Shown piece by piece: positions 7,806 through 22,694 of a stretch of DNA of 64,000 nucleotides. Position numbers and translations under genes: made by a program. The DNA is from a virus. The stretch covers positions 4,750-68,749 of the IMG/VR virus record IMGVR_UViG_3300045963_000147, one strand, 5' to 3'. Numbering within the stretch: the stretch's first letter is position 1; each line of letters opens with the position of its first letter. A model generated the notes under the pieces. That model was not told where the DNA came from. It did not search any database and was given only the letters and a program-made list of their open reading frames with translations.

Positions 7806-8087
7806 TCACCTTGTGAGCTTTGCCGTTGTGATGGCGACGATGAATACGCGCATGGCTTTGAGGGCCATCTTGTCGCCCTTGAGGGCGGCGGTGTGCGTGT
7901 CGTAGAGCGAGCCGTTGATCTGGTTGAACGGAGAGACTTTGTTGAACCAGAGGTCCACAAAAGTCTGTTGAGCCACGTTCACCGCCATCGCGTACTCAAT
8001 GAACGAGTTGAACGGCTTCTTCCAAAGCCAGTCAGGCGGCTCGTACGCCTTTACACACCAAGCATCTTCTGGTTCTTCAGACACCAT
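7806..8087 (-). CDS. Hypothetical protein
   Basis: 93-aa ORF inside the operon. Confidence 0.55.
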   Translation of the reverse strand: MVSEEPEDAWCVKAYEPPDWLWKKPFNSFIEYAMAVNVAQQTFVDLWFNKVSPFNQINGSLYDTHTAALKGDKMALKAMRVFIVAITTAKLTR

Positions 8088-9049: not shown

Positions 9050-9059
9050 CGAGTGGTGC

Positions 9060-9200
9060 TCAGTTGAAGGATTCGGGGAAGGCGTAGCCGATCGTGAAGA
9101 ACATGAGGGTCACGATCAGGCCGGCCAGGAGGAAGTCGAGGACGTACTGGCGGTAGCGAGCGCGTCGCGAACGGGTGCGGTTGAGGAAGATTGGGCGCAT
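9060..9200 (-). CDS. Small single-TM membrane protein
   Basis: MRPIFLNRTRSRRARYRQYVLDFLLAGLIVTLMFFTIGYAFPESFN (46 aa, read by hand; absent from ORF track). Confidence 0.55.
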   Translation of the reverse strand: MRPIFLNRTRSRRARYRQYVLDFLLAGLIVTLMFFTIGYAFPESFN

Positions 9201-9257
9201 AGATCGAAGATAGATCGTAGAGGTTGAGACGCAGAGATGGCCAATAGGAATTGGCTA

Positions 9258-9461
9258 TCAGGTGATCGTCGGCGTGCGAATCGTTTTGGCGCACCATTCG
9301 ACGGTGGAGTTCCAAGTTTGGTCGAAGGCTTCGTCGCACACCCTCGCGCACCGCTCGCGCTCTTCAGCGACCCGCGCGTCACCGTACGCTTGGATGGCTT
9401 CGAGTTCGAGCTTCGTCCAGGTGTAGGTGTGTGGCTCGGGGTGGCCTGGAAGCGGGATCAC
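9258..9461 (-). CDS. Hypothetical protein (MIPLP...EERERC family)
   Basis: Paralogous to 9458..9730. Confidence 0.65.
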   Translation of the reverse strand: MIPLPGHPEPHTYTWTKLELEAIQAYGDARVAEERERCARVCDEAFDQTWNSTVEWCAKTIRTPTIT

Positions 9462-9730
9462 GGCCAGTCACCTTCAGCGCAAATCGCCTCGATGCAGTCT
9501 TCGGCACCACATGCCTCGCTGTCCACAAACGCTTGCTCAAGTTCATCGGCGTTCTTTGGCTTGCCTTGGTGGTGTGCCTGCACTTTTCGGCACCACTCCA
9601 AGCACCGATCGCGCTCTTCCTCCACGCGGGCAGCGGCGTAGGCTCTGACCTGTGACTCGGTATAGACGCGCTCTGCCTTGACCAGTCCAAGGCGCACTGA
9701 TAGGTATAGGGGCTCTGGCAGCGGGATCAT
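9458..9730 (-). CDS. Hypothetical protein (MIPLP...EERDRC family)
   Basis: Paralogous to 9258..9461; 4-nt overlaps. Confidence 0.65.
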   Translation of the reverse strand: MIPLPEPLYLSVRLGLVKAERVYTESQVRAYAAARVEEERDRCLEWCRKVQAHHQGKPKNADELEQAFVDSEACGAEDCIEAICAEGDWP

Positions 9731-9945
9731 TTCCCACCCCCTGTAGCCCGTTCGATTTCCTCACGCACGATGCGGCGCACAGCATCTTCTGTCAGGCCGA
9801 AGTTGTACGGTTGGGGGCGTGGTTGGAATGGCTGCGAAGGAACCGGCCATTCTCTGCGCGGAAGATAGCCGCACTTGCACATCGGCCCGACATAGCCCGA
9901 GACGCCATCGAACTGCGGAAGGTTGCAGCGGTTGCAGTGATTCAT
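9727..9945 (-). CDS. Small Cys-rich hypothetical protein
   Basis: CNRC...CKC; ATGA coupling. Confidence 0.6.
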   Translation of the reverse strand: MNHCNRCNLPQFDGVSGYVGPMCKCGYLPRREWPVPSQPFQPRPQPYNFGLTEDAVRRIVREEIERATGGGK

Positions 9946-10592
9946 TTCTCACCCCCAATCTGCGCCGCAGCGCCAATTCCGTGGGCGGCTTCGACGGCAC
10001 GGGCGAACTCCACAAACCAAGAGTCCTCATCCTTCCGGTCGAACGGCGTGCGCCACAACTTCACAATCTCCTGCTTTGTCAGCGGCTGCGCCACCCGCTG
10101 CGGGGCGGTGATGGTTGGCGCGCTGAGGGCCTTAACGAGAATCTTTTGGCCCATCAGCATCGTGAATGGCAGAGCCTCGCGGATGGCGATTCGCAGGCGT
10201 TCAGAATCATCGGGCTGCGCTACCCGCTGCGGGGCTGCGAGATAGACGGGCACTGAGCGATCCGGGCCGGCTCCATTCCAATGGCGCGGCGAGAATTCAC
10301 GGTGCAGGCCAAACGCCGAGTGGTATTCGTAGACGTAGCAATAGGGCTCACCCTGCGGCTGGGTGGGCTGCGCCAGGACGGCGCGGAGGGCATTCTGTGC
10401 CGCCTCGATTTTCTGAACAGCGCGAACATCGTCCCAGTACCCGATTACTTTGTCGGCTGCGGATAACCAATCGCGCTCAAGATCATGGCGTTTTGGATGG
10501 CAGCGAATGTGTTGCAGTAGCTTAAGTGCTTCGTGTGCTGGGTGCAGCGCTTCCAGTGCCGCCATGCAGGCGGCTCGCTCGTGGTCAGTCAT
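9942..10592 (-). CDS. Mosaic hypothetical protein
   Basis: MTDHERAACMAALEAL...VEAAHGIG; paralog of the next gene. Confidence 0.7.
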   Translation of the reverse strand: MTDHERAACMAALEALHPAHEALKLLQHIRCHPKRHDLERDWLSAADKVIGYWDDVRAVQKIEAAQNALRAVLAQPTQPQGEPYCYVYEYHSAFGLHREFSPRHWNGAGPDRSVPVYLAAPQRVAQPDDSERLRIAIREALPFTMLMGQKILVKALSAPTITAPQRVAQPLTKQEIVKLWRTPFDRKDEDSWFVEFARAVEAAHGIGAAAQIGGEK

Positions 10593-11178
10593 GCTCGCCT
10601 CCAATTCCGTGGGCGGCTTCTGCTGCTTCAACGCCAGCTTCAAACCAGTCAAATGAGTGCCAAGTGTGGCCTTTCCTGTATGCGATACGCCACGCTGCGT
10701 CAGTCTGTTCCAACGTCAGTGGAGTCAGCGGCTGCACTGCCGGCCCATCCTGCGGCTGGGTGGGCCGATACTCCACTTCTTCCGGCCCATCGCCCAAGCG
10801 TATCCACACGCGGCCGGCAACGCCTTCAGCCGATGCGCCGCCGGAATAGCGGCTCACGACAGGCCACGGCACAGTGTCGGGCTGCGCCGGCTCAGTAGCG
10901 ACGCCAAGCGACATCGACCCGATGACCTTGTCAGCGAGTTCACGCATCGCATAATTGATGGCAACCGTTTCCCGAACGCCGCTGATCCGCTGTGCGTTTT
11001 CGATCATGCGCCAGATCAGCTTGTCGCTGGGCGCAAGCATCACGGTGGTGGGCTGCGCCAGGACGGCGCGAAGGCCAAGAATCGCAGCCTCCGTGCGTTG
11101 TATAGGCCGCGTCTGCTGAGTGTGATATTCCAGCGCTTCCAGTGCCGCCTGTGCGGCTGCTCGTTCTTGGGTGTTCAC
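10585..11178 (-). CDS. Mosaic hypothetical protein
   Basis: MNTQERAAAQAALEAL...AEAAHGIG. Confidence 0.7.
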   Translation of the reverse strand: MNTQERAAAQAALEALEYHTQQTRPIQRTEAAILGLRAVLAQPTTVMLAPSDKLIWRMIENAQRISGVRETVAINYAMRELADKVIGSMSLGVATEPAQPDTVPWPVVSRYSGGASAEGVAGRVWIRLGDGPEEVEYRPTQPQDGPAVQPLTPLTLEQTDAAWRIAYRKGHTWHSFDWFEAGVEAAEAAHGIGGEHD

Positions 11179-11369
11179 TTCGGCTCCTTGTCCAGCGAGG
11201 TGTCGCGAAATAGCCGGTAGAAGCTCATGTTGTTCTTCGAGGCGCAGAGCACCATGAAGTCGAAGTCTTCTTTGCGGCGTCGAGCGAGGTCGGCTTTCTC
11301 AGCGGCGGTCGGCTCGCCTTTGATGGCCTTGGCCCAGGCGTTGTTGAGGCCGGTGGCGGTGTGGGTCAC
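11175..11369 (-). CDS. Hypothetical protein
   Basis: GTG start VTHTATGLNNAWAK..., coupled to neighbours. Confidence 0.5.
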   Translation of the reverse strand: MTHTATGLNNAWAKAIKGEPTAAEKADLARRRKEDFDFMVLCASKNNMSFYRLFRDTSLDKEPK

Positions 11370-11472
11370 AGCAGCTCGGCGTCGGTCAGCAGGTTCGGGT
11401 TCAGGTGCTGCTTGGCCTCGTAGACGTACATGGCCATCACCATGGCCATCAGGAAACTGTGAGAGAGGTGGG

Positions 11473-11814
11473 TCATGCTTGTGCTCCTGTGCTGAGCCCC
11501 TGGATCGCGGCGGCGTTGTGCTTGGCGCGCACCCGTGCCCAGCGCTGGCTGGACGTCTGGGGCAGTGGGCGCTTCTTGTCCTGCTTGTCGCCGGCCGCAT
11601 ACATGGGTATGGACCAGCGGCCCATGGCGTCTTGTGCCCAGCCGCAGATGTGGGCCATCTTGCGCCGGCGCATCACCAGGATGAGCTTGCGCACGGTGTT
11701 GAAGTGCAGCCCCGTCTCTTCGACGAGGTCAGGTACGGTGCCGCCTTCCGCGGCCATCAGCTCGAAGAACGTGACGACAGCGGCGGCGTGGGCGAGGTGG
11801 CGGTTGAGGCCCAT
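11473..11814 (-). CDS. Winged-helix/HTH DNA-binding protein
   Basis: GTVPDLVEETGLHFNTVRKLI helix-turn-helix pattern followed by a HICGW wing. Confidence 0.65.
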   Translation of the reverse strand: MGLNRHLAHAAAVVTFFELMAAEGGTVPDLVEETGLHFNTVRKLILVMRRRKMAHICGWAQDAMGRWSIPMYAAGDKQDKKRPLPQTSSQRWARVRAKHNAAAIQGLSTGAQA

Positions 11815-12632
11815 CAGGGTGTGGCTTTCTTTGTGGGCTTGGTGCGTTTGGCTTTGGTCAGCGGGTACATGTCCTCGCTGACAGACTTGATCGTCATCAA
11901 CTTCTTGCTGCGCATGAAGTAATGCACCGCGTTCTGGCACTTGAGGAACGTATCCCGCCACAGGGCGGTGCTTGAGGCCACGGCGCCTTTGGTCAGCAGG
12001 TAGTTGCGCAGCGTGATGGCGGCGGTCTCGTCCTGGCCCTCATAGAACCCGGTGCCCAGCACGTCGCAGAAGCGTTGTAGCCGGGCGTGGTCGGTCTCGT
12101 GGACATAGGCCCGACCAACAGCACCCATGACGACAGCGCCGCACAAGAGCTGGCGACGGCGTACAGCACTGGCGGCGAAGCTCGCAGCTTCACGGTGTCG
12201 ATTGACGACCTCTAGAGTTTCGCTGTTTGAGACTGTGCGGTTGAGGGCTATCGTGCCGAATTCGATGGCCTTTGCGGCTGCGATCAGCGTGAACGACAGC
12301 CCGGTGTCGGTACCGCTGATACGTGCGTTGTCCACCACGCTGCGGCCCAGGCCTGTGTTGAGGTTCAGGCCGTCGATGCGCAAGAGTCCTCGTGCCACGG
12401 GGAAGGTCTGAATGGTGTTGCTGTCGACGATGGCCCACAGCCGGTGCTGGCCGTCGGCCAAGTCGCCATCCACGTAGAAGCTGATGGGCTCGGGGCACAC
12501 GGTCCACCGTCCGCTGCGCATGTCGTCAGCGTATTTCTCGGCGACGCCATCGCGCATCTTGCGGTTGCTCTTGTTGGCGTTGAGCCAAGCTTCTGCGATC
12601 GTTGGTGTGATGGTCTCGACGATGATGTTCAT
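11814..12632 (-). CDS. ParB/Srx-like DGQHR-domain protein
   Basis: ITPTIAEAWL..N..NR, YADDMRSGRW, LADGQHRLWAI. Confidence 0.8.
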   Translation of the reverse strand: MNIIVETITPTIAEAWLNANKSNRKMRDGVAEKYADDMRSGRWTVCPEPISFYVDGDLADGQHRLWAIVDSNTIQTFPVARGLLRIDGLNLNTGLGRSVVDNARISGTDTGLSFTLIAAAKAIEFGTIALNRTVSNSETLEVVNRHREAASFAASAVRRRQLLCGAVVMGAVGRAYVHETDHARLQRFCDVLGTGFYEGQDETAAITLRNYLLTKGAVASSTALWRDTFLKCQNAVHYFMRSKKLMTIKSVSEDMYPLTKAKRTKPTKKATP

Positions 12633-15040
12633 GGCTTCGCTTTCATGGGCTTGGCGGGCACTTTCGCTGCCGGCTTGGGCGGGGCAGGGAAGTGGGTGGT
12701 GGCATAGGTGCCGAAGTCCTTGACGTCCTTGAACGTCGTCTTGATGCCGTAAACGGCCTTGGCGTCGACCCACACCCGTGAGGTGCGGATGCGGTGGTGC
12801 TTCAACAAGGACGTGAACTTGTTCGGGCTCTCGGGCATGTTGCCCACCACGTACTCAAAGATCACGTGCAGCTCGTCGCGACTGATCGTGCAGTCGCCGC
12901 TCTTGAGGTCTGTGCGCACCATGATCGTCTGCACGGCGTGCTTGTAGTCGGCGATCTTGTTGGCCTTGTTCGCGTTGCCGCTGTAGGCCATGGTGGCAGG
13001 GAGCTGGTCGAGCAGGAACTCCATGTCACCGCCCAGCACTGCGTCGGCGACGGTGTCGACGCTTGACTGGGACACGGCGATCATGGCCGTGCGGTCTTCG
13101 TTGTCCAGAGGCGTGGCGACAGCCTGCTTGTCCACTGGGTAGGAGAGCAGGAAGTCGTGGAAGCTCTGCATCTCGGTGGCGACGAGGTCGAGCTGCTTGT
13201 CCGTCATGCCCAGCTTGTTGGGCTGGTACTTGCCCACGTTGAAGCGGCGGTCACCTGTCGGTATGACGACAGGCTCCGCGCGGTTGGAGGCAAATATCCA
13301 GTTGGTGAAGTTCTCCCACTCCACGGCGTTGGAGTACATCTGACGAATCTGGATGTCGGGCTCGACGATGAAGTTGCGCAGCTTGGCCATCACGCCTTTC
13401 TCGTTCGTGAAGGCCTTGGCCTCGACCTCGTCCACGAACACGATGAAGCACTGCTTCATGAAGGCGTTGTAGGGCTCGTTGAACTCTTCCATGCGGCGCA
13501 TGGTGGTCTGGTTGCGGCCGAACAATGGGCGCAGGATGCGGTTCATCAGCACGCCCTTGCCTGTACCCTCGGTCCCGTGCAGCACCCAGGCCGTGAGCGT
13601 GCGTGTGCGCTCTTGCAGGATGAAGGCCAGCCAGTTGAGGAAGTGGGTGGTGCAGTCCACGTCAGAGCCGAGGACGTGGTGGATGATCTTGAAGATCGTT
13701 GTCGGGCAGCGCACGACCTTCTTGGCTGGTGTGCGCATGTACTCGGTGAGCTGGAACGTGTTGATCGTCTTGTTGTCGAAGTCCACGCGCACAGAGTCAT
13801 GTGGGTCGAATGTCATGTCCCACTCGGCGATGTAGGAGCCAAGCGGCACGCCGTACTGCTCAGCGAAGTGCCTGATCTGTGTCTCGTTCTTGGCCGGGTT
13901 GAGGTCAAGGGTGTCGGTCGAGGCCTCGTAGGTGCCACGGTAATAGGCCCCAGAGCGACGATCGAGGAAGGCGAGGTAGGTGAGGCCCTGGCTCGTGGTG
14001 CGCGAGGCTTTGGAGGTCAGCGTGGCCCAGTAGGCAGGCAGCAGCTCCTTGGTCAGGTAGACCGGCTCACCCTTGAAGTTGTGGATGTAGTCCGGGTTGT
14101 CCTCGGGGTGGTAGTAGGCCCAGGAGTCACCGCCGTTCAGGTTGAAGTACACGAAGCCACGTTCGGTGCGCGTCTCGGTGACCTCGCACGCATCGGGCTT
14201 GGGCAGAATCTCGTGGGTGCCCGACATCTTGGTGACGAGCTTGCGTGCAGGTAGGCCAGCGAGATTGCGCAGATCAGCGATGACCTTGTCGGTCAGCGTC
14301 TTGTTGACAGCCACGGTGTTGGTGGCGCTGGGGAATGAGAACGTCTCGTCGGTCTTCTTCACGTACGAGATGCGCGCAGCACGACCCAGCGGGTACTTGA
14401 TGCCCTTGAGGATGGGCGGCGCGATGTAGATCAGCTTGTCGTTCTGGCACGCGGTCACGTCGAGGGGCCAGGACAGAGCGTTGCCCGTCTTGGTGAGCTT
14501 GAGGGACTCGGCCAGGAGGGGCGTGGTGTGGTTGAGCTGGATCAGCCACTGCTTGATGACGGGCGCTGCGATCGGGGCAGTCAATCGGATGAAGATATGG
14601 CAGCGCAGATAGCCAGGGGCACCGATGTTGTGGGACGCAGACCACTGAAGCACGTACGAGCAGTTCCCCATCCCGATTGCGTCGAGGATCGTGTCAGGCG
14701 TCACCTTCACAGGTGTCGGTGGCGTGGTGCCGGTGTCGAGGTACGTGTCGGGCAAGCCGTCGATGTCGAGGCAGAGCCAGTCGGTCACGTCTGCGGTGTT
14801 CGTGGAGCCGGCACGGGATTCGTTGACCAACTTGCGGTGGATCAGGCCCTTGACCAGACAGTCGCCAGCGGCTGCGTGGGCGTCCAGCTTGAGAGCCAGC
14901 TCGGACGTCGTGTTGATGACCTTTTCGACGCTCGTGACGTTGTACACGTTGGGGTACGGCGTCTTCTCGATGGACCCGTCAGGGGCTCGGGAATAGGTCT
15001 TGGTGAGGGGCTGAGACGTTTGCAAAAAGAAAACACGCAT
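12629..15040 (-). CDS. Primase-helicase (AEP-like N-terminus + SF3/DUF5906-like helicase)
   Basis: LCLDIDG and SASH...RCHIF primase motifs; LHGTEGTGKG Walker A, VFVDEV Walker B, IFASN, GDRRF. Confidence 0.88.
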   Translation of the reverse strand: MRVFFLQTSQPLTKTYSRAPDGSIEKTPYPNVYNVTSVEKVINTTSELALKLDAHAAAGDCLVKGLIHRKLVNESRAGSTNTADVTDWLCLDIDGLPDTYLDTGTTPPTPVKVTPDTILDAIGMGNCSYVLQWSASHNIGAPGYLRCHIFIRLTAPIAAPVIKQWLIQLNHTTPLLAESLKLTKTGNALSWPLDVTACQNDKLIYIAPPILKGIKYPLGRAARISYVKKTDETFSFPSATNTVAVNKTLTDKVIADLRNLAGLPARKLVTKMSGTHEILPKPDACEVTETRTERGFVYFNLNGGDSWAYYHPEDNPDYIHNFKGEPVYLTKELLPAYWATLTSKASRTTSQGLTYLAFLDRRSGAYYRGTYEASTDTLDLNPAKNETQIRHFAEQYGVPLGSYIAEWDMTFDPHDSVRVDFDNKTINTFQLTEYMRTPAKKVVRCPTTIFKIIHHVLGSDVDCTTHFLNWLAFILQERTRTLTAWVLHGTEGTGKGVLMNRILRPLFGRNQTTMRRMEEFNEPYNAFMKQCFIVFVDEVEAKAFTNEKGVMAKLRNFIVEPDIQIRQMYSNAVEWENFTNWIFASNRAEPVVIPTGDRRFNVGKYQPNKLGMTDKQLDLVATEMQSFHDFLLSYPVDKQAVATPLDNEDRTAMIAVSQSSVDTVADAVLGGDMEFLLDQLPATMAYSGNANKANKIADYKHAVQTIMVRTDLKSGDCTISRDELHVIFEYVVGNMPESPNKFTSLLKHHRIRTSRVWVDAKAVYGIKTTFKDVKDFGTYATTHFPAPPKPAAKVPAKPMKAKP

Positions 15041-15098
15041 TTTTGGTCCGCAGCAGGGGTGGGTGGGCAGTGTAGCTCTATCTTAGACGTGCGACAAT

Positions 15099-15235
15099 GG
15101 CAGGGGTTCGGAAGGCTCTTTTTCATAGGTATTCCTTCTATTCTTCCATTCTTCCAATCTTTTCTTTTAGAAAGTAAAAGAAGAAGAGAAGAAGAGGAGT
15201 AAGAAAGAGAGAGAGTGTTTCCTATAGAAAAGGTT
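15099..15235. repeat. Copy A of a long-range inverted repeat (candidate replication origin)
   Basis: First 36 nt are 35/36 identical to the reverse complement of 57882-57917; three TTCTTC(C/T)A-type octamers; purine tract; TTCCT(A/G)TAGAAAAGGTT end box. Confidence 0.85.
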
Positions 15236-15307
15236 GGCGCCGGCCAGCGGAAGCGGCCAGTCATATAGATGACTTGATCCCCATGCCTTTCGCTGCGTGA
15301 AGGACAA

Positions 15308-15335
15308 AAGGACACCGCCTTGCGGCGATGTCCTT
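15308..15335 (-). terminator. Probable intrinsic terminator after 15342..16442
   Basis: Minus strand AAGGACATCGCC-GCAA-GGCGGTGTCCTT then TTG. Confidence 0.7.
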
Positions 15336-15341
15336 GCCCGA

Positions 15342-16442
15342 TCAGGGCATGTCGTTGGGCTGTTCCGCCAGGGACAGTTCAGCCTTCAGGTTCTCCTGCT
15401 TCACCACCCGGGCTTTGGGCTTGGCCTTGCTTGCCTTGGCGTCGAGCTTGGCCTCCTTCTCCACCGACTCACCGACTTGCGCTACGAACTTGCCCACCGG
15501 CGAGTTGTCCTTGCGCAGCGACGGCACAGGCTTGCCGGTGGGTTCGATCTTCGGCACCAGCTTGTCACCGATGTTCGCGTAGCGGTGGTGCGTCGTGGCC
15601 AGATGGCAGGCTTCGACGAAGGCGACGTGCAGGCGCAGCGTGGCATCGAATTCGAACGCACTGCGCGCACGCTTCATGATGCTGGCGCGGAACTTGGCCA
15701 GACGTTCCGGCGTCGCGTAGCTGTTGAGCAGCGACAGTTGCGTTTGCACGTCGAGCTTGTCGAACTCGATAGCATCGCCACGGTCGGCCAAGTCGATGAT
15801 GTTCATCACCGAGCTGACGTGCTTGCCCCAGGCTGCGTGCTGACCGGACAGTTCACGCACGTTGAGCACGTCGTACTCCTGGCGCGTCATCAGCGGCTTG
15901 TTGCCGGTTTCGCTGAGGTAGCACACCCACAGGTGGTCCAATTTCCAGTGATCCACCGGCGCAGGCTTGGCGACAGCGTCCAGCGTGGACAGCCAGTTGG
16001 TGACAGGCGCCTTGGATTCACCCATCAGGCTGACGAGGTAGTCGTCGCACGTGCGCTTGTAATGCAGCAACTTGCTCAGGTCATCGCACATCGAGCGCCG
16101 CGTGCCGCCGGCTTCTTCGAAGGATTGGGCGGCAGCTTCGAGGGAGTCGAGGTGCGACATTGCGTCGTTGTACGTGTCGATCGAGCCGATGCCGTCGCGC
16201 TTGTTGGCCCACGAGTCGGCTTTGCCGTACGGTTCGTCGCAGTTGCGCAGGTCGGATGCGAAGCCGTTGGCAACCATGCCGGCCAGCCGTCCGATGCGGA
16301 ACGCCAGACCGCCGGTGACGCTGAACATCACGGCGACGCCGGCTTCGGCCGGCAGGAACTTCTTGATCAGGTCGAGAAGGTCGGGGTGGGGGATGATGAT
16401 GGATTTGGTCATGTCGCCGGTTTTCACTTGATGGGTAGCCAT
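15342..16442 (-). CDS. Hypothetical early protein
   Basis: 366-aa ORF with phage-like codon usage; no recognised motif. Confidence 0.8.
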   Translation of the reverse strand: MATHQVKTGDMTKSIIIPHPDLLDLIKKFLPAEAGVAVMFSVTGGLAFRIGRLAGMVANGFASDLRNCDEPYGKADSWANKRDGIGSIDTYNDAMSHLDSLEAAAQSFEEAGGTRRSMCDDLSKLLHYKRTCDDYLVSLMGESKAPVTNWLSTLDAVAKPAPVDHWKLDHLWVCYLSETGNKPLMTRQEYDVLNVRELSGQHAAWGKHVSSVMNIIDLADRGDAIEFDKLDVQTQLSLLNSYATPERLAKFRASIMKRARSAFEFDATLRLHVAFVEACHLATTHHRYANIGDKLVPKIEPTGKPVPSLRKDNSPVGKFVAQVGESVEKEAKLDAKASKAKPKARVVKQENLKAELSLAEQPNDMP

Positions 16443-16675
16443 GGTTTGCTTTCGAGAGAGTTGAGGTTTGAGACGATGTGCTGGTTACGGTGTCCAGCAT
16501 GCAGTGGGTGCATCGCTTGACGGTCTGAGCTGATTCCCAAGATCAACTCGTGAGCGTTGCGTAGCTCACAGCCCCTGTGCTTCGCGCTGCGGGTAAACGT
16601 CCTGGGTTCATTTATCACTCGCTCAGGCGTGCGAGTTGTCAGAGCGCTGGAGTTGGATGTCCAGCGCTTACTGAT

Positions 16676-16891
16676 TCAGATGCGACTCAAGATGATCTTG
16701 GTCGCTTCGGCCTCGGTGCAGTTCAGCAGCTCGGCGAGGTGTTCGACTTTCTTGTCGAACATCACGTCAGGCGAGTCCGCGGCTTCGTAGATTTCAAACG
16801 CCTTCTGGTCGGCGAGTGACAGATGGCTGAAGGGGACGACGCTGATGGCAACGGGTTGGCGCTTCACGCGCAGGGCGGCGAGTCTGGACAT
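16676..16891 (-). CDS. Small early protein (follows element copy 1)
   Basis: AGGAG RBS; MSRLAALRVK... 71 aa. Confidence 0.7.
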   Translation of the reverse strand: MSRLAALRVKRQPVAISVVPFSHLSLADQKAFEIYEAADSPDVMFDKKVEHLAELLNCTEAEATKIILSRI

Positions 16892-16901
16892 GGAATCTCC
16901 T

Positions 16902-16955
16902 AAGCAGCACACGCTGCACAAAGCCAAAAAGAAAGGCCCGCGCAAGCGGGCCTAT
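16902..16955 (-). promoter_or_regulatory. Double-hairpin early element, copy 1
   Basis: GCAGC-acac-GCTGC, CAC, 14 nt, AGGCCCGC-GCAA-GCGGGCCT; 44 bp identical to 17272-17315. Confidence 0.8.
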
Positions 16956-16956
16956 T

Positions 16957-17250
16957 TCAATAGCCGCGACTGGCGTAGTCCCAGCCCAGGCGTCGTACCT
17001 TGTCCATGTGCAAGTTGTCGTTGCACGTGTAGCGACGATCAGCGTTGTGGCTGCGCGCAAGCTCGATCAATTGAGCGTGCGTGCGGAAACGCCAACCGAG
17101 TGAACTCCAGCCGTTGATCGTGGATTCGCTGGGGCAACCCCACGGCGTTGACAGTTCGACGATTGAGCCATCCGTCATTTCGGCGAGGACTTTGTAGTCG
17201 ACGCATATCAGCACGTTGCTGACGATGGTTGGTTGATTGGTGTAGGTCAT
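16957..17250 (-). CDS. Small early protein (follows element copy 2)
   Basis: 97 aa; fills the gap between element copies 1 and 2. Confidence 0.7.
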   Translation of the reverse strand: MTYTNQPTIVSNVLICVDYKVLAEMTDGSIVELSTPWGCPSESTINGWSSLGWRFRTHAQLIELARSHNADRRYTCNDNLHMDKVRRLGWDYASRGY

Positions 17251-17260
17251 AAGCTTCCAA

Positions 17261-17315
17261 GCAGCGACGACCGCTGCACAAAGCCAAAAAGAAAGGCCCG
17301 CGCAAGCGGGCCTAT
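17261..17315 (-). promoter_or_regulatory. Double-hairpin early element, copy 2
   Basis: GCAGCG-acgac-CGCTGC, CAC, 14 nt, AGGCCCGC-GCAA-GCGGGCCT. Confidence 0.8.
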
Positions 17316-17455
17316 CAGACGGTGCGCACAGGTCTACATCAATGTGCAGACCTGTGCGTACACAGGAGGGAGTGCTGCACGCTCCCCTACGGATACCAAC
17401 CCGCTTGATCGGTCTGTTGAGTCATCGCATTTGTGTTCTCCGGTAGCCCTGGTGT

Positions 17456-17719
17456 TCACGAGCCGTTGAGCGAGCCGGTCAGCGACTGGGCCTGATCGAC
17501 CGCCTTGTTCATGGCCTCGTTCAACTCCAGGATGGCGTTGAGTGCTTCGTGCTTGTTGGCGCAGTTGAAGTGCGCCTTCATCGCTTCCCAATAGAGGTCC
17601 AGGATCGACGCGCCGAGCGCGCTGCGGATGTGGATTGGGTCATCGCCCTTGTGCAGGCCGTTGGCATACAGCAGGTTGAGGGCGGTGACTTCGTCCAGGT
17701 CGGGGCGATGGATGCTCAT
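17456..17719 (-). CDS. Hypothetical protein
   Basis: MSIHRPDLDEV..., ATGA-coupled. Confidence 0.7.
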   Translation of the reverse strand: MSIHRPDLDEVTALNLLYANGLHKGDDPIHIRSALGASILDLYWEAMKAHFNCANKHEALNAILELNEAMNKAVDQAQSLTGSLNGS

Positions 17720-18030
17720 AACAGTAACTCCTCGGTTGCGTAACCAACAATTCCACGTCTTGTTCTCACGTCGTCGACGATCGTGCCGTATATCACCTTG
17801 GCTATTTCGACGGTGATCATTGATACCACGAACGCGCCTGTCGCGCTCATGGTGCCGGTTACAGTTCCCCAGTGGATCCAGAGATTGAGCATTAACATAA
17901 ATACGTGGACAGTAATACATCCACCCTTATTCCCCAGCAGCCGCAGCCTATATCTTGGCGGCACCATGCTGAGTATCACGAATTCAAACACGCTGAGCAG
18001 CGCGCCGAATATCAATACTGCTTCGACCAT
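17716..18030 (-). CDS. Multi-pass membrane protein
   Basis: GAGGAG RBS; MVEAVLIFGALLSVFEFVILSM...LRLLG...IHWGTVTGTMSA, three hydrophobic segments; AT-rich. Confidence 0.75.
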   Translation of the reverse strand: MVEAVLIFGALLSVFEFVILSMVPPRYRLRLLGNKGGCITVHVFMLMLNLWIHWGTVTGTMSATGAFVVSMITVEIAKVIYGTIVDDVRTRRGIVGYATEELLL

Positions 18031-18222
18031 AATTAAATTCTCCTCGTCCCCCGTGCAGGGTACTGAGTTATTCGTGTGATGGTTGAGTTTCGCCAATCAT
18101 CACGCCTCGTTTGGTTTGGCTTCGCCAAACCTCACGACCCATGAGGTGCCCCATGCAGCCTCCGGGTTTGACGTCGCGCAGCGACGAGCCGGGCCGGGCT
18201 TTCGCCCAACCCCGGCCCGCCG

Positions 18223-18489
18223 TCACACCGCCTTCGCCGCCTTGCGCGACGGCGCTGCGCCGATGGGCGCCGCGCGTTGCGCCTTCAGCGCCTGGGCCTC
18301 GGCCTTCAGCGCACGGCGCTGATCGACGGGCAGCGCGAGGTACGCGCTCTTCTCGTCGTAGCCCTCTTCGATGCCGGTGACGACGTTGCCGCCGAATTCA
18401 CCCAGCCCCTCGAACCCTGCCACAACGCCGTGCGCGGTCAGCGCGCCGACCGTGCCAATGGCGCGGCCAAGTTTGATACCGATGGACAT
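18223..18489 (-). CDS. Small early protein (follows element copy 3)
   Basis: GGAG RBS; MSIGIKLGRAIG... 88 aa. Confidence 0.7.
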   Translation of the reverse strand: MSIGIKLGRAIGTVGALTAHGVVAGFEGLGEFGGNVVTGIEEGYDEKSAYLALPVDQRRALKAEAQALKAQRAAPIGAAPSRKAAKAV

Positions 18490-18505
18490 TTCGCTCTCCA
18501 GTAGT

Positions 18506-18563
18506 GACCGACGACATGCCGGTCTGCACAAAGACGAGAAGAAAGGACCGCGCAAGCGGTCCT
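18506..18563 (-). promoter_or_regulatory. Double-hairpin early element, copy 3
   Basis: GACCG-N9-CGGTC, CAC, 14 nt, AGGACCGC-GCAA-GCGGTCCT (compensatory change relative to copies 1 and 2). Confidence 0.8.
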
Positions 18564-18571
18564 CACCTAGC

Positions 18572-18895
18572 TCAACCCTGAGCCGCAGCGGCCTTAGCCG
18601 CCATGCGCTGCACCGCAGCCTTGGCGCCCTGCACCGCGCAGTCAACGCGGCGATCCAACGCCTTGGCGACGATGTCCGCAGACACGAAGCGCTCGGTGGA
18701 CTCGCCGTCGTTGCCGCGCAGCTCCAACAGCGCCGCGTCGTACTCGCCGCGAGGCACGGTCGACGGCGCCTCAACGGACGTGCGGCGCAGCAGCCGTGTG
18801 ACGAGCAGCGCCAGCACGTCCAGCCGACGCTCTGCGTCGGCGAGGCTGGTGGTGAGTGAGGCGACGGTGGATTCGAGTTCAGCTTTCGTGGCCAT
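18572..18895 (-). CDS. Small early coiled-coil protein (follows element copy 4)
   Basis: GGAG RBS; MATKAELESTVASL... 107 aa. Confidence 0.7.
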   Translation of the reverse strand: MATKAELESTVASLTTSLADAERRLDVLALLVTRLLRRTSVEAPSTVPRGEYDAALLELRGNDGESTERFVSADIVAKALDRRVDCAVQGAKAAVQRMAAKAAAAQG

Positions 18896-18915
18896 GGGGC
18901 GCTCCAGATCAAGGA

Positions 18916-18968
18916 CAGCCAAAGCGGCTGCACAAAGACGAGAAGGAAGGCCCGCGCAAGCGGACCTT
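18916..18968 (-). promoter_or_regulatory. Double-hairpin early element, copy 4
   Basis: CAGCC-aaagc-GGCTG, CAC, 14 nt, AGGCCCGC-GCAA-GCGGACCT. Confidence 0.8.
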
Positions 18969-18972
18969 GTTC

Positions 18973-19146
18973 TCAGCGGCGCTGCCCGGCCAACGCTGCA
19001 ATGAAGCAGCCGATGCTCGCCATGAACGCGAGCAGGTACGGCACCGGCACTGTCCACGGGAAGGTGACGTAGAGCACCGGGTAGATGAACAGCGCCGTCA
19101 TGACGATGAACGACAGGGCTGCGATGAGGGCGTTGTGCTTGTGCAT
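18973..19146 (-). CDS. Small two-TM membrane protein (follows element copy 5)
   Basis: AAGGAG RBS; MHKHNALIAALSFIVMTALFIYPVLYVTFPWTVPVPYLLAFMASIGCFIAALAGQRR (read by hand). Confidence 0.7.
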   Translation of the reverse strand: MHKHNALIAALSFIVMTALFIYPVLYVTFPWTVPVPYLLAFMASIGCFIAALAGQRR

Positions 19147-19160
19147 GGTGTTCTCCTTGA

Positions 19161-19212
19161 TGAGCGAGATTGCTCACAGAGCCAGGAGCAAAGGGCGGCG
19201 CACGCCGTCCTT
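19161..19212 (-). promoter_or_regulatory. Double-hairpin early element, copy 5 (divergent)
   Basis: TGAGC-N6-GCTCA, CAC, 14 nt, AGGGCGGC-GCAC-GCCGTCCT. Confidence 0.65.
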
Positions 19213-19219
19213 GGTGTAG

Positions 19220-19380
19220 CTGCACTGCATGCATACGCGCTGCACGCTGTGCATGTGCATGTGTATGAGGACATGTGTATGCATGCACGCATCACTGCAT
19301 CCTTGTGCTGCTGCATGAGTGCATGCGTGTGCATGCACGCAAGGGCATGTCAACGCTGCGCCTGTAGCCATGTGCATGGC
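19220..19380. repeat. Alternating purine/pyrimidine (GCATG/TGCA) tract; candidate packaging or terminus region
   Basis: Dense GCATG/GTGCAT repeats between the divergent early and late arms, upstream of terS. Confidence 0.6.
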
Positions 19381-19543
19381 TGTTCGGGCGCGGGTCCATG
19401 AAAAGAGACTCCTTTTCGTGGCCGTGGAGCCCGAATCCGAAGTCGGTACCCCGACGAGGAGAGGGCTGGGTAGGAGGCTCCGTGCCCGTACGCGTCAAAA
19501 ATTTATAGAAAATTTCCTGAGCTGATTTACACTCCGCTCTAAG

Positions 19544-20125
19544 ATGTCTCGCACTTCGATCTTAGATCACAAGCCCCAGCACAAGCTGCCCAAACGGGGT
19601 TCCCAAATCGCCACGCCGGTCGAGAAGTCCGTCCGCAAATACCTCGACACCAGCGACCACGCCGCAGCGGAACTGATCGACCCGAACAAGCCGCTGACCT
19701 CTCAGCAGCTTGCCTTCGCGAAAGCCAAGGCCACCGGCGAATCCACCGCGTCCGCAGCCCTCCGCGCCGGGTACTCCCAGGAGGCCATCGGCTTCCGCCT
19801 GATCCGCATGCCCAACGTCTTGCGCGCCGTCGAAGCGGAACGCCGCCTCTACGAAGAGGCCTGCCAGATGTCCCGCAAGAAGGTCATGGACATGCTCATC
19901 GAGTCCTTCGACATGGCCAAGCTGATGGCCGAGCCTGCGTCCATGGTCAGCGCCGCCCGAGAAATCGGGAAGATGTGCGGCTACTACGAGCCGGTCAAGA
20001 TCAAGATGGACATGACCGTCAATGGCGAGGTGGCCGTGCGCCAGCTCAACGCCATGAGCGACTCCGACCTCCTGAAGCTCATCACCGGCGGCGTCCAGCC
20101 GGTCCTGCCCGGCCCAGCAGCATGA
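19544..20125 (+). CDS. terS: Terminase small subunit
   Basis: LTSQQLAF...ASAALRAGYS HTH, SAAREIGKMCGYY; first late gene. Confidence 0.85.
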   Translation: MSRTSILDHKPQHKLPKRGSQIATPVEKSVRKYLDTSDHAAAELIDPNKPLTSQQLAFAKAKATGESTASAALRAGYSQEAIGFRLIRMPNVLRAVEAERRLYEEACQMSRKKVMDMLIESFDMAKLMAEPASMVSAAREIGKMCGYYEPVKIKMDMTVNGEVAVRQLNAMSDSDLLKLITGGVQPVLPGPAA

Positions 20126-20457
20126 GCTGGATGGACATCAACAACCCAGAGTTGTGGGTCCAGGTGGTGCGCCGCCCCGCACCCATCGAGACGCGGATCG
20201 AGTGGGCTGATTACGACCAAGAATTCGGCCAGCGCAAAGTCCTGACCGGCACCCTCCGCTTGCACTGCGGTCATGTGATCGCCGTCCAGTCGACCGTCGA
20301 CCGCCGCGATTGGCGCGATGCCGGCCCGCTGCTGAAGGAGAGCCTGACCCGGCGGCTCCGCCACGCCGAGGAACACCACGACTGCGAAGCCTTCGAGCAG
20401 GCAGAGACAGTCAGGCGCGTCACCGAGAAGCTCACCCGGAGAACCCATGCGCACTGA
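20122..20457 (+). CDS. Hypothetical protein
   Basis: MSWMDINNP..., ATGA-coupled. Confidence 0.6.
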   Translation: MSWMDINNPELWVQVVRRPAPIETRIEWADYDQEFGQRKVLTGTLRLHCGHVIAVQSTVDRRDWRDAGPLLKESLTRRLRHAEEHHDCEAFEQAETVRRVTEKLTRRTHAH

Positions 20458-20983
20458 CCGAGCCCGCCGCCAGCGCCAGCTTGACGACATCACTGCCGCG
20501 CGGCTCAAGCGCGACAAGCGCGACCAGCGCGAGAGAGCGCGCATTCGAGAGCACGCCCACAACGCCCAGGTCGTCGCCGCCGTCACTGCCAAGCTGACTG
20601 CCGCCCGGCCCAAGACCATGTTCGAAGAGGGCGGGGCGTTCGGACAGCCCCTGTCCAACTCGTTCATCGCCAAGATGTACGCGAACATAGTCGCCAACAA
20701 GATGGCCGGCAAGTCGATCTTCGCGAACGCGAACGTGAGCAGCGGTGCAGCAATTCAGGCCATGATCCACCGCCCGCGCACCCTGGTCATCGACGACCTC
20801 ATCGCGGCCGACAAGCTCATCGACTACGGCACCGCGAAGAACCCCAGCTTCAGCCAGCGCCAGGGCCTGAAGCCGCTCGACGAGGCCGTCCACGACAACT
20901 GGGCGGACGCCTCGAAGTACCTCATCGGCTGGGACTTCGGCGTCAAGGGCTCCCCGGCCGTCGTCATCGCCAGTGGCAGCTAA
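20447..20983 (+). CDS. Hypothetical protein with TerL-like motif fragments
   Basis: 178 aa; LVIDDL and LIGWDFG segments match terL at DNA level. Confidence 0.65.
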   Translation: MRTDRARRQRQLDDITAARLKRDKRDQRERARIREHAHNAQVVAAVTAKLTAARPKTMFEEGGAFGQPLSNSFIAKMYANIVANKMAGKSIFANANVSSGAAIQAMIHRPRTLVIDDLIAADKLIDYGTAKNPSFSQRQGLKPLDEAVHDNWADASKYLIGWDFGVKGSPAVVIASGS

Positions 20984-22694
20984 GCCCAAGCCGAAACCCG
21001 CCCCCAAAGCCAAAGCTCCGCCTCTCGAAGCCCCTGACCGCTTCGATCCCGACCAGGAAGCGCAGCGCGCCTACGCCGCCCAGAGCCCCGAGGCCACACA
21101 AGCTCTGCCGCCGCTGACCCCGGCCCACCTCTCCGCCCAGAAGGAGATGGCCAGCCGGGTGCTGTCCCGCCGCCGGCTGCTGCCGTTCGTGCAGCGGATG
21201 AACGAGCGCTACGACGCCGGGTGGGTTCACGCCGACATCTGCCGGCGCCTGGAGAAGTTCAGCGACGACGTCGCCGCCGGCCTCAGCCCCCGCCTGATGA
21301 TCCTGATGCCGCCCCGGCACGGCAAGAGCGAGCTGGCGTCTCGGATGTTCCCGCCCTGGCACCTGGGCCGGCACCCTGACCACGAGTTCATCGCCTGCTC
21401 GTACAACTTGTCCCTGGCGATGGGCTTCAGCCGCAAGGTCAAGCAGATCATCGACGACCCGGTGTACGAGGGCGTGTTCCCGACGAAACTGGACCCGAAC
21501 AACCAGTCCACCGAGGAGTGGGGCATCGCCGGCCAGCGCGGAGGCTACGTCGCAGCCGGTATCGGCGGGCCAATCACCGGCAAGGGCGCGCACGTCCTGG
21601 TCATCGACGACCCGGTGAAGAACGCCGAGGAGGCCGACAGCGCGGACGGCCGCGAGAAGGTGTGGGAGTGGTACCTGTCCACCGCCTACACCCGGCTGGC
21701 CCCTGGCGGCGGCGTGCTGGTCATCCAGACGTGGTGGCACGACGACGACCTCGCCGGCCGGCTCCAGCAGATGATGAAGAGCGGCGAGGAGGACGAGGAC
21801 ATCGACCAGTTCGAGGTCGTCAAGTACCCCGCCATCGCCATCACCGACGAGTTCCTGGCCCCCGACGGCTCGATCGTCGCCGTCCCCGAGGCTGCGAACT
21901 CGGCCCACTACTCCCTCCTGCGCCTGAAGGGCGAGGCGCTGCACCCCGCGCGCTACGACCTGAAGAAGCTGAACAAGATTCGCGCCCTGAACCGCAAGGA
22001 CGACGGGGCGGACGGCCGGTGGTGGAGCGCCCTGTACCAGCAGAACCCGGTCCCTGACGACGGCGGCTATTTCCAGAAGGCCCAGTTCAAGCGCGCGCCG
22101 GTGCCGCACGTGTCGAAAGCCAACGTGTTCATCGCCTGGGACTTCGCCATCAGCGAGAAGAAGCAGAACGACTACACCGTGGGCGTCGTCGGGCTTCAGG
22201 ACGACGACGACATGCTGCACATCGCCGAGGTCGTGAGATTCAAGTCCGGCGATTCGTTCTTCATCGTAGAATCTATTCTGAATCTATGTTCGAGATGGCC
22301 CAGCGCCTCGTTGCAGCTCGGCTTCGAGGACGGTCAGATTTACCGCGCAATCGAATCTCTACTTTCGAAACGGATGAGAGAACGCAGGATGTACCCGGCC
22401 ATCGAGGTGCTCAAGCCCATCACCGACAAGCTCGCTCGTGCCCGCCCGCTCCAGGGCCGGATGCAGCAGGGCATGGTGAGCTTCAGCGCCAACGCCGAGT
22501 GGTACGACGACACGCGCAACGAGATGCTGCGCTTCCCGGCCGGCGTACACGACGACCAAGTGGACGCCCTGGCCTGGATGACCAAGATGGCCGTCGGCCG
22601 CGCTGCGCCGAGGAAGCCGAAGGCCCAACAGCTCAAGTCCTGGCGCGACAAGCTCAAGGGCCTGGGCGGCGCCAACACCCACATGGCCGCATAG
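20973..22694 (+). CDS. terL: Terminase large subunit
   Basis: MPPRHGKS Walker A, ITGKGAHVLVIDDP Walker B, QTWWHDDDLAG, ALYQQNP, AWDFA, HDDQVDA. Confidence 0.97.
   Translation: MAAKPKPKPAPKAKAPPLEAPDRFDPDQEAQRAYAAQSPEATQALPPLTPAHLSAQKEMASRVLSRRRLLPFVQRMNERYDAGWVHADICRRLEKFSDDVAAGLSPRLMILMPPRHGKSELASRMFPPWHLGRHPDHEFIACSYNLSLAMGFSRKVKQIIDDPVYEGVFPTKLDPNNQSTEEWGIAGQRGGYVAAGIGGPITGKGAHVLVIDDPVKNAEEADSADGREKVWEWYLSTAYTRLAPGGGVLVIQTWWHDDDLAGRLQQMMKSGEEDEDIDQFEVVKYPAIAITDEFLAPDGSIVAVPEAANSAHYSLLRLKGEALHPARYDLKKLNKIRALNRKDDGADGRWWSALYQQNPVPDDGGYFQKAQFKRAPVPHVSKANVFIAWDFAISEKKQNDYTVGVVGLQDDDDMLHIAEVVRFKSGDSFFIVESILNLCSRWPSASLQLGFEDGQIYRAIESLLSKRMRERRMYPAIEVLKPITDKLARARPLQGRMQQGMVSFSANAEWYDDTRNEMLRFPAGVHDDQVDALAWMTKMAVGRAAPRKPKAQQLKSWRDKLKGLGGANTHMAA

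Follow-up and report, generated by a model that had tools for sequence, protein, structure and literature searches.

Repeated hairpin–box–hairpin elements ahead of small early genes in a KPP25-like podovirus and its relatives

The early region and its five repeated elements

The DNA analyzed here, referred to as the window, is a stretch of 64,000 nucleotides (positions 4,750 to 68,749 of the IMG/VR virus record IMGVR_UViG_3300045963_000147) and makes up most of this 68,749-bp record. It carries five copies of a composite element consisting of two hairpins and a short box between them, each located directly ahead of a small gene of the leftward early region. On the plus strand, the genes encoding the small and large terminase, the portal, and the structural proteins follow from 19544 onwards, the last of which encodes a virion protein of 3165 amino acids (aa). 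The minus-strand genes run from 19146 downwards and comprise an array of ORFan genes, a gene for a 366-aa protein, and genes for a primase–helicase of the D5/DUF5906 type, an SNF2 helicase, an exonuclease, and a family A DNA polymerase. A tyrosine integrase (59275–60312) and an ATP-dependent DNA ligase (62106–62996) are also encoded. The portal protein shares 45% identity with its counterpart in Pseudomonas phage KPP25/phiR18 (Kochitakasuvirus), the layout of KPP25 is equally divergent, and the phage is a distant relative of KPP25. The GC content of the KPP25-like podovirus group is 58–65%. Relatives of the primase with 54–56% identity are found in an isolate genome of Variovorax brevis and in metagenome-assembled genomes of Verminephrobacter and Polaromonas (loci L091–L094). 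Because of these genomes, the wider group is considered to be temperate in Comamonadaceae, and the lineage of the phage is probably temperate with hosts in this family, unlike the lytic image of KPP25. A blastn search of positions 15300–20500 against 50,697 phage records gave no match, Rfam at gathering thresholds gave none for the whole window, and a metagenome scan returned relatives of only about 52% identity.

A repeat search of the window yielded a single repeat family of five co-oriented 44-nt copies without any indel (16912–16955, 17272–17315, 18522–18565, 18926–18969, and 19170–19213), in the places where a preliminary description made from the letters alone had put them. Copies 1 and 2 are 100% identical, as had been described, and copies 3, 4, and 5 share 80%, 82%, and 61% of the 44 nt with copy 1. 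A degenerate pattern matched the whole record five times in forward and never in reverse orientation, and a reversed-pattern control gave no match. On the plus strand, the order noted beforehand is seen in every copy: the small hairpin, CAC, exactly 14 purine-rich nt, AGG, and an 8-bp stem with a 4-nt loop, which is GCAA in copies 1–4 and GCAC in copy 5. The genes of this region lie on the minus strand. In mRNA sense, the order is the preceding stop codon (in copies 1, 3, and 4), the 8-bp GC hairpin with a TTGC loop (the main hairpin), a pyrimidine/U tract, the box, the small hairpin, a Shine–Dalgarno (SD) sequence, and the ATG. The box, TTGTGCAG (TTGTGYA type) or CTGTGAGC in copy 5, starts 11–12 nt past the main stem. 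The small hairpin has 5–7 bp and begins within the box or 1–3 nt after it.

Copy 1 (16889–16955, minus strand as all others) heads gene H and scores 64.7 bits with the covariance model described below; its main hairpin is located at 16934–16953, the spacer at 16922–16933, the box at 16914–16921, the small hairpin at 16904–16917, the SD sequence at 16897–16901, and the ATG at 16889–16891. Copy 2 (17248–17315; main hairpin 17294–17313, box 17274–17281, small hairpin 17261–17277) heads gene G and has a fold z-score of −4.6. In copy 3 (18487–18565; main hairpin 18544–18563, box 18524–18531, small hairpin 18506–18524), which heads gene C, an A–T pair replaces C–G at stem position 4, a compensatory change that had been pointed out before. 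The mismatches reported for the same stem position in copies 4 and 5 are also present. Copy 4 (18893–18969; main hairpin 18948–18967, box 18928–18935, small hairpin 18916–18930) heads gene B and has a U·G wobble in mRNA sense. The most diverged copy, copy 5 (19144–19213; main hairpin 19192–19211, box 19172–19179, small hairpin 19161–19176), heads the first early gene, A, and has an A·C mismatch in mRNA sense, which is retained in the orthologous copies of two relatives (L008 and L019, see below).

Both hairpins were recovered by RNA folding in all five copies, including the small one, whose pairing had been said to persist throughout; the z-scores of the minus-strand folds range from −1.3 to −4.6. 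The start codons of the minus-strand genes (16891, 17250, 18489, 18895, and 19146) follow about 25–45 nt past the box, and the distance from hairpin to ATG is only about 45–65 nt, in accordance with the earlier placement of each copy just before a start codon. The previous stop codon is located 2–8 nt ahead of copies 1, 3, and 4, the three that had been described as abutting it. A terminator scan of the minus strand called copies 1 and 2 terminator-like and did not call copies 3–5, in which the U tract is degraded, as observed before. The combination of a GC-rich hairpin and a U run in the transcript is found in copies 1 and 2.

The genes headed by the copies are A (18973–19146, 57 aa), B (18572–18895, 107 aa), C (18223–18489, 88 aa), G (16957–17250, 97 aa), and H (16676–16891, 71 aa), all on the minus strand. 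They belong to the array A, B, C, (D), E, F, G, H, which extends over 16676–19146. The proteins A and E are membrane-protein-like, and no credible function was obtained from Pfam or PHROGs for any of the small proteins. The copies head the first genes that run leftward from the divergent junction; this region is the early, host-takeover ORFan region of the phage.

Conservation, exchange and the wider family

Relatives were collected by a primase-based search of IMG/VR, which resulted in 78 loci. In L008 (86% primase identity), three copies were found, heading B (directly, by the orthologue of copy 5), C, and H. Across the eight aligned copies (five of the window, three of L008), the main stem is 96.4% paired, and both sides changed in four of the eight pairs. 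The observed covariation score was reached in 0 of 500 shuffles, and no slid register came close. In the small hairpin, the inner pair is C–G in window copy 4 and G–C in L008 (6660–6676, ahead of C), whereas a G·U in the copy ahead of H in L008 (8005–8017) corresponds to A·C on the other strand. Compensatory changes, the search for which had been proposed, are thus present in both hairpins. In L019 (70% primase identity), the covariance model built from the eight copies detected three diverged copies (21.7, 20.9, and 15.7 bits). Their stems consist of other sequences with the pairing kept, their loops are CAAG or CGAG, and a T tract is absent. The box of L019 is TTTGAGC (CTCTGCG in the third copy), and its distance from the hairpin is unchanged. 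The spacing and the second hairpin, on whose conservation the preliminary description had made its reading depend, are therefore kept in relatives, and the structure of the copies appears to be maintained by selection. Apart from the eight seeds and the three weak L019 copies, the model matched one site in L057 (18.9 bits). The suggested model search of phage genomes was thus successful for L019 but found nothing in KPP25, which indicates that the primary sequence of the element is lineage-specific.

The genes between the copies vary between relatives, a point that had been raised for checking. No relative of gene G, the gene between the identical copies 1 and 2, turned up in 96 loci; A, B, and F each occur in one locus, and H, C, and E in 13, 14, and 29 loci, respectively. 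L008 lacks both A and G, each together with one copy. In L019, A is present, and there is no copy between A and an unrelated second gene. When 54 proteins encoded downstream of elements were clustered, 31 clusters including 23 singletons were obtained. The C and H families keep the element across distant phages (55–86% primase identity), and in each case the element sequence is of the respective phage genome's own type. Copies within one genome are more alike than orthologous copies of different genomes; the window box, for example, differs from that of L011, L014, and L024, and the two hairpins of L091 (22 nt) are identical. This within-genome likeness and the replacement of the element type at C and H argue for an exchange between copies.

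The 44-nt repeat interrupts the assembly in the Logan contigs of three wetland runs; a separate contig of 376 nt consists of gene G with half-copies, and yet another has the 33-nt core between unrelated flanks. Since this DNA may itself come from these runs, we take this as a hint only, and the depth steps across the repeat are not usable as a measure of abundance. A co-occurring relative with a flank that matches L019, seen in Logan contigs of three runs, has 16476–16527 connected to 17347–17414 by 517 other letters. These letters stand where the window has H, copy 1, G, and copy 2, a natural replacement of the cassette block.

Repeat searches in more distant loci revealed other sequence families with the same plan; in L011, for example, a hairpin, a spacer that includes TTTT, and a GTGTGTATCAACC box occur together five times. 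For a family scan of the window, KPP25, and the 78 IMG/VR loci (1.35 Mb), the rule was a hairpin of at least six pairs, 8–14 nt, one of the sequences TTGTG, TGTGTA, TTTGAG, or CTGTG, and SD plus ATG within 70 nt. It gave 56 gene-sense versus 11 antisense matches. The 56 matches include near-duplicates (L036/L059) and an internal duplicate in L014, and four of them look unrelated (L030, L055, L076, and L080); according to a manual reading of the list, the remaining ones are located 0–6 kb upstream of the primase gene. This separation of the strands was seen only with the stricter rule that includes SD and ATG, whereas a loose hairpin scan gave 109 sense and 108 antisense matches, and the first loose regular expression (regex) was likewise uninformative. 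The one match of the IMG/VR pattern scan, in L006, lies inside an integrase-like gene on an unrelated contig and was judged to be due to chance. KPP25 has two elements, one of them ahead of its first early gene, and the Variovorax brevis prophage (L091) has two copies with an identical 22-nt hairpin; more copies were found in metagenome loci. In the window, L008, L019, KPP25, and L091, the first early gene has an element ahead of it.

For the alignment of the boxes, 49 curated copies were used, leaving out the four unrelated matches, the L014 duplicate, and two L059 duplicates. The consensus is yTTGTGYAK; the spacer is T-rich with almost no A, and the hairpin–box spacing has its mode at 11–12 nt (range 8–14). 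Different genomes have different box variants: TTGTGCAGC in the window and L008, GTGTGTATC in L011, L014, and L024, TTGTGTTCTTC in L033, L036, and L054, TGTGTAGKT in L056, L061, L065, L066, and L071, and TTTGAGC-loop-GCTC in L019, L031, and many first copies. A hairpin directly after the box is present in about half of the elements (minimum free energy ≤ −5 kcal/mol in 31/54, z < −1.5 in 21/54, mean z −1.0), and the elements without it have unstructured CA-rich leaders. A general claim that the T tract is found in internal copies only and is missing from first copies was dropped, since the family-wide difference is small (3.74 vs 3.29 T in 9 nt; 31 vs 24 elements, with a noisy open reading frame (ORF) criterion). 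Dozens of related phages, KPP25 and a Variovorax prophage among them, have the same architecture, made of other sequences, in their early regions.

To assign the folding strand, stems were re-detected from Watson–Crick seeds, and isolated non-Watson–Crick positions were then classified in 55 main hairpins. In mRNA sense, six G·T (in six different elements), three A·C, and two other positions were counted; the three A·C cases represent one event because all of them are in the first copy, which is orthologous between the window, L008, and L019. Small as these numbers are, they lean towards a hairpin that acts as RNA or as the non-template strand. The loops of the family are mostly 4 nt long and varied (e.g., TGGC, CAAG, and TGAA in sense). 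A universal GNRA loop was found on neither strand of the 55 hairpins, and the template-strand GCAA loop of the window is accordingly a feature of its lineage. Five copies justified the preliminary description in leaving the active strand open; the 55 hairpins favor the sense strand, although not decisively.

Several other features of the region were noticed. A strong, ordinary terminator-like hairpin at 15308–15335 (minus strand, 12 pairs) closes the early ORFan module after the 366-aa gene; its GCAA loop is in mRNA sense and hence, as stated before, on the strand opposite to that of the copies. Between this hairpin and the primase gene, 15100–15300 is AT-rich and includes a long polypyrimidine run and, after it, a polypurine run. 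An equivalent AT-rich gap, which in KPP25 contains direct repeats, exists in relatives (L091 7800–7930, L007 4981–5656); the region is a candidate for a middle-promoter region or an origin. The non-coding 140 nt between gene F and copy 2 (17316–17455) contain two hairpins, one with a 12-bp stem. This stretch is conserved in L019 (5780–5885) with another loop, L008 has a different gene there, and it may be a small RNA or an operator. A box-like CTGTGAGC with a 6-bp hairpin at 16545–16585 (minus sense) resembles the 3′ half of copy 5 and has no main hairpin upstream. It lies within a 230-nt stretch ahead of the 366-aa gene, overlaps a doubtful ORF (16424–16618), and is conserved in L008 and L019.

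Promoter and polymerase searches

A sigma70 scan of positions 9000–21000 resulted in 3 sites versus 2.0 expected, none of which is located within 15,000–19,600. A −10 hexamer cannot be placed in the spacer because the spacer contains almost no A, and no −10-like hexamer at a workable spacing was found in the copies. The earlier statement that there is no room for a separate sigma70 promoter before the next gene agrees with these results for 15,000–19,600. Sigma70 extended −10, sigma54 (−24/−12), and extracytoplasmic function (ECF)-type consensus sequences were fitted by eye and did not fit across the copies; the same holds true for the DnaA box, CRP/FNR half-sites, RfaH ops, and the T7 class II pause site.

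A phage RNA polymerase or sigma factor was not detected with PHROGs, Pfam, PDB sequences, or motif regexes. The 3165-aa virion protein (47590–57087) matched no Pfam family and, among the PHROGs, only a 'virion structural protein' at its C-terminus; it had no match at E ≤ 1 among PDB sequences, and the T7-type motifs B, C, and TxxGR were absent by regex. The DxDxD motif of two-barrel polymerases was not found in the four largest virion proteins. Regex, Pfam, PHROG, and PDB sequence searches thus agree with the earlier remark that motifs of an N4-type virion RNA polymerase (vRNAP) are not recognizable. The language-model neighbors of the 3165-aa protein carry polyvalent-protein (LPD) domains, with lead-level scores. 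Its homologues are mosaic, carry no RNA polymerase name, and each cover 15–54% of residues 800–2300. The protein has no cysteine, which fits any ejected protein and not a vRNAP alone. In sequence-level comparison, it looks like a polyvalent injected protein.

Upstream of copy 5, the divergent leader (19214–19543, minus strand) consists of an AT-rich block, blocks conserved in relatives, and a TGCATG-rich insert. The sequence TATAAA in the AT-rich block at about 19502–19507 is a possible −10 element of a host early promoter, although this is a weak call. From KPP25 to the Variovorax prophage, the order AT-rich block, GAGCCTCC, small hairpin, TTCGGATTCGGG, and inverted repeat GAAAAG..CTTTTC is kept (window 19395–19510 in minus sense, L008 6080–6200, L019 4100–4240, L091 4170–4300, and L007 ~7860–7960). 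These blocks are candidates for an early promoter or leader, or for a genome end. The TGCATG-rich stretch between the leader blocks and copy 5 (19220–19390) contains many short direct and inverted repeats, among them a perfect 11-nt inverted pair (19226–19236/19277–19287); it is present in neither L008 nor L019 at this place.

Possible functions of the elements

The elements resemble the cassettes called promoter-early stem-loops (PeSLs) in T4-like myoviruses (Arbiol et al., 2010, PMC2839356; Comeau et al., 2014, PMC4122927). PeSLs have strong sigma70-like −35/−10 boxes and an AT-rich upstream part, and recombination between copies has been proposed, with mini-circles. The pattern of cargo genes and copies observed here matches the description given by Arbiol et al. 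for T4-like phages. Both are short composite intergenic motifs with a stem-loop capable of termination or attenuation (here predicted), end in SD and ATG, and are repeated before small ORFans of a plastic early region, with indels between close relatives at the copies. Unlike in PeSLs, sigma70-like boxes were not found, a TTGTGYA box at a fixed spacing takes their place, and the phages are KPP25-like podoviruses, not T4-like myoviruses. The best-supported reading, to which we give even odds, is that the copies are PeSL-like intercistronic cassettes without a sigma70 part, which would combine an attenuator or terminator, a stabilizer of mRNA ends, and a homology patch for the shuffling of ORFans.

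As such a cassette, the element would do its work chiefly as RNA, in the sense of the mRNA (minus strand). After entering from the divergent region at about 19.2–19.5 kb, host RNA polymerase would transcribe the ORFan array. The 8-bp GC hairpin and the pyrimidine/U tract would attenuate or terminate transcription, strongly at copies 1 and 2 and weakly at copies 3–5, and the main hairpin might also cap the 3′ end of the upstream message. The TTGTGYA box, 11–12 nt further on, would mark the start of the leader of the next gene. Its new 5′ end would most likely be generated by endonucleolytic cleavage in the single-stranded, U-rich spacer between the hairpins; re-initiation appears less likely. 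The small hairpin, an optional part, would then protect the new 5′ end, for which its position directly past the box is fitting, and SD and ATG follow. In this way, the early transcript could be split into separately dosed and separately stable mRNAs. Since the same 45–60 nt flank every ORFan, the copies might in addition serve as homology patches for insertion, loss, and exchange of ORFans, as proposed for the PeSL cassettes of T4-like phages. Anatomy, covariation, family-wide conservation, position, and cargo variation are seen in the sequences, as is the lack of a sigma70 motif and of a recognizable phage RNA polymerase; termination, cleavage, stabilization, and recombination are inferred. 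RNA processing and recombination joints, listed as separate options in the preliminary description, form the two halves of this proposal, whereas antitermination, named there together with processing, is rated low (see below).

Hairpins between cistrons are known to stabilize the upstream mRNA at its 3′ end and, as in RNase III processing, may free the next ribosome site. Between its early genes, T7 has RNase III sites, irregular duplexes that extend over some 20 bp or more. The elements are like them in that one structured site is found per early gene boundary; their stems of 8–12 bp are too short for RNase III, however, and any cut would be in the single-stranded spacer. In cluster K mycobacteriophages, the start-associated sequence (SAS) extends into the ribosome site and is not known to be linked to terminator-like hairpins. 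SAS and the extended SAS (ESAS) share with the elements the repetition of a conserved motif just upstream of many start codons, sometimes after inverted repeats, but the sequence and the phage group are unrelated. Unlike integron attC sites, which are long imperfect palindromes with conserved R″/R′ core sites at the 3′ end of each cassette, the hairpins measure 20–28 nt, and a GTTRRRY-type core was not seen in the copies; the integrase of the phage gives a generic match to phage tyrosine recombinases, as opposed to the IntI of integrons.

Several observations weigh against the cassette proposal. RNase E prefers the sequence RN|WUU, which the TTGTGYA box does not resemble, and a degenerate site for a host nuclease would not be expected to be so conserved. 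The genome-specific box variants would also be in line with a phage-encoded factor that recognizes them. The first early gene, which has nothing upstream to terminate or to protect, still has a full copy ahead of it, and a T tract is lacking in the L019 copies and in many other family members. The upstream promoter candidate is weak, and the sigma70 scan did not call it. The A·C mismatch of the first copy, retained in three phages, is a G·T wobble on the other strand. Finally, the fixed hairpin–box spacing across differing sequences suggests a promoter-like arrangement: as the spacing is fixed while the sequences differ greatly, one machine might read hairpin and box together.

The main rival explanation, although unlikely, is a new structure-dependent promoter, in which hairpin and TTGTGYA box start the transcription of the following gene, at the box itself or directly behind it. 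The reader would be either host RNA polymerase, assisted by a phage factor that is injected or made early, or an unrecognized polymerase, and the hairpin would double as the terminator of the previous unit. Apart from the spacing of 8–14 nt (mode 11–12) held despite completely different sequences, the copies before the first early genes of the window, L008, L019, KPP25, and L091, and the box variants, which resemble promoter specificities, this is favored by copies 1 and 2, which look like efficient terminators with more genes to follow, by the same pairing of terminator and promoter in PeSLs, and by the lack of cysteine in the 3165-aa virion protein, as in the injected vRNAPs of the N4 group. 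On the other hand, no −10/−35, ECF-like, or sigma54-like motif is found at a workable spacing, the searches for an RNA polymerase or sigma factor were negative, the language-model neighbors of the 3165-aa protein point to polyvalent-protein domains, and the wobble counts favor a hairpin in RNA sense. The more specific claim of a new early promoter class in KPP25-like podoviruses and their temperate Comamonadaceae relatives, with the hairpin at the −35 position, a genome-specific box, and host RNA polymerase assisted by an injected factor, appears distinctly unlikely. In such promoters, the hairpin could be DNA or nascent RNA, and the factor might possibly be part of the cysteine-free polyvalent virion protein of 2000–3200 aa.

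It is improbable that the copies are duplicated intrinsic terminators with a functionless inherited flank as the source of their downstream likeness. The terminator-like scores of copies 1 and 2, the stop codon adjoining three copies, and the T-rich spacers common in the family would fit, and a GC hairpin with a U tract just past a stop codon is indeed the arrangement of intrinsic terminators. Box and spacing are kept, however, while spacer and stem letters diverge, and the fixed geometry and the covarying second hairpin are additions to a terminator; furthermore, the U tract is weak or missing in copies 3–5, L019, and many other copies. The assessment that these are not plain terminators is supported by these features and by the copy preceding the first early gene, where nothing is to be terminated.

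Very improbable is an antitermination site of the nut or rrn type, with a boxA/boxC-type Nus site beside a boxB-like hairpin that renders the polymerase resistant to terminators. Some copies contain GCTCTTT or GCTCTGTG, which are close to boxA, the GT-rich boxes resemble boxC of lambda and rrn operons, and the terminators are arranged in series. Lambda-type nut sites occur once per operon, with a conserved boxA ahead of a boxB hairpin whose loop is conserved. Yet the boxA-like letters occur in some copies only, order and spacing are unlike those of lambda nut, and the hairpin loops vary. Moreover, five sites would be situated on one 2.3-kb transcript, for which we know of no precedent.

Selfish or neutral small palindromic repeats that spread intergenically without a role in expression, comparable to repetitive extragenic palindromic (REP) sequences or miniature inverted-repeat transposable elements (MITEs), would explain the homogenization of copies within a genome and their association with indels. 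They are highly improbable in view of the strict orientation and position (5′ leader, 25–60 nt before SD–ATG), the retention of the element at the orthologous genes C and H across phages of 55–86% primase identity, and the compensatory changes.

Phage N4 has three early promoters with a 5–7-bp stem, a 3-nt loop with a purine at −11, a loop-closing G:C, −10G/−8G/+1C, and a hairpin end at about −5 (PMC4496689), which depend on vRNAP, gyrase, and single-strand-binding protein (SSB) and initiate in a rifampicin-resistant manner at a fixed distance past the hairpin (PMC4496689, PMC3715699); the vRNAPs of the group, including that of LUZ7, are cysteine-free (PMC3715699). The vRNAP is a packaged protein with a diverged single-subunit polymerase domain of the T7 kind. 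That the elements are such promoters, i.e., DNA hairpins of the template strand that supercoiling extrudes and a vRNAP reads, had been the first option of the preliminary description and is scarcely credible: the variable stem letters with kept pairing ahead of early genes, the giant cysteine-free protein of a podovirus, the purine-rich template-strand spacer, and the G..A loop closed by C–G on the template strand of four window copies (GCAA, which would give a stable DNA hairpin) are reminiscent of N4, but the 8-bp stem with a 4-nt loop in all five copies (family stems 8–12 bp), the unconserved loops, the extra box 11–12 nt downstream, the lack of any likeness to the N4 vRNAP or another RNA polymerase in the sequence and motif searches, the preponderance of sense-strand over template-strand wobbles, and the KPP25-like organization of the phage all differ from it.

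The module is real, conserved, and structured; in all probability, it is more than a terminator and not an N4-type promoter. The cultured members of the group, KPP25, phiR18, A1002, and CRPAP1904, are used in phage-therapy work on Pseudomonas aeruginosa, and prophage relatives exist in Comamonadaceae; in the KPP25/Kochitakasuvirus papers searched, no description of early transcription in the group was found. An easily recognized module that heads each host-takeover ORFan provides a handle for the annotation of early genes, and it raises the question of how a phage without recognized sigma70-type early promoters or a polymerase of its own expresses these genes. If the box were a promoter, it would be the second example of hairpin-dependent early transcription after N4, and each ORFan cassette would carry its own compact and portable terminator–promoter part. 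The module also offers a test of whether cassette shuffling in the manner of PeSLs is a general strategy beyond the T4-like phages.

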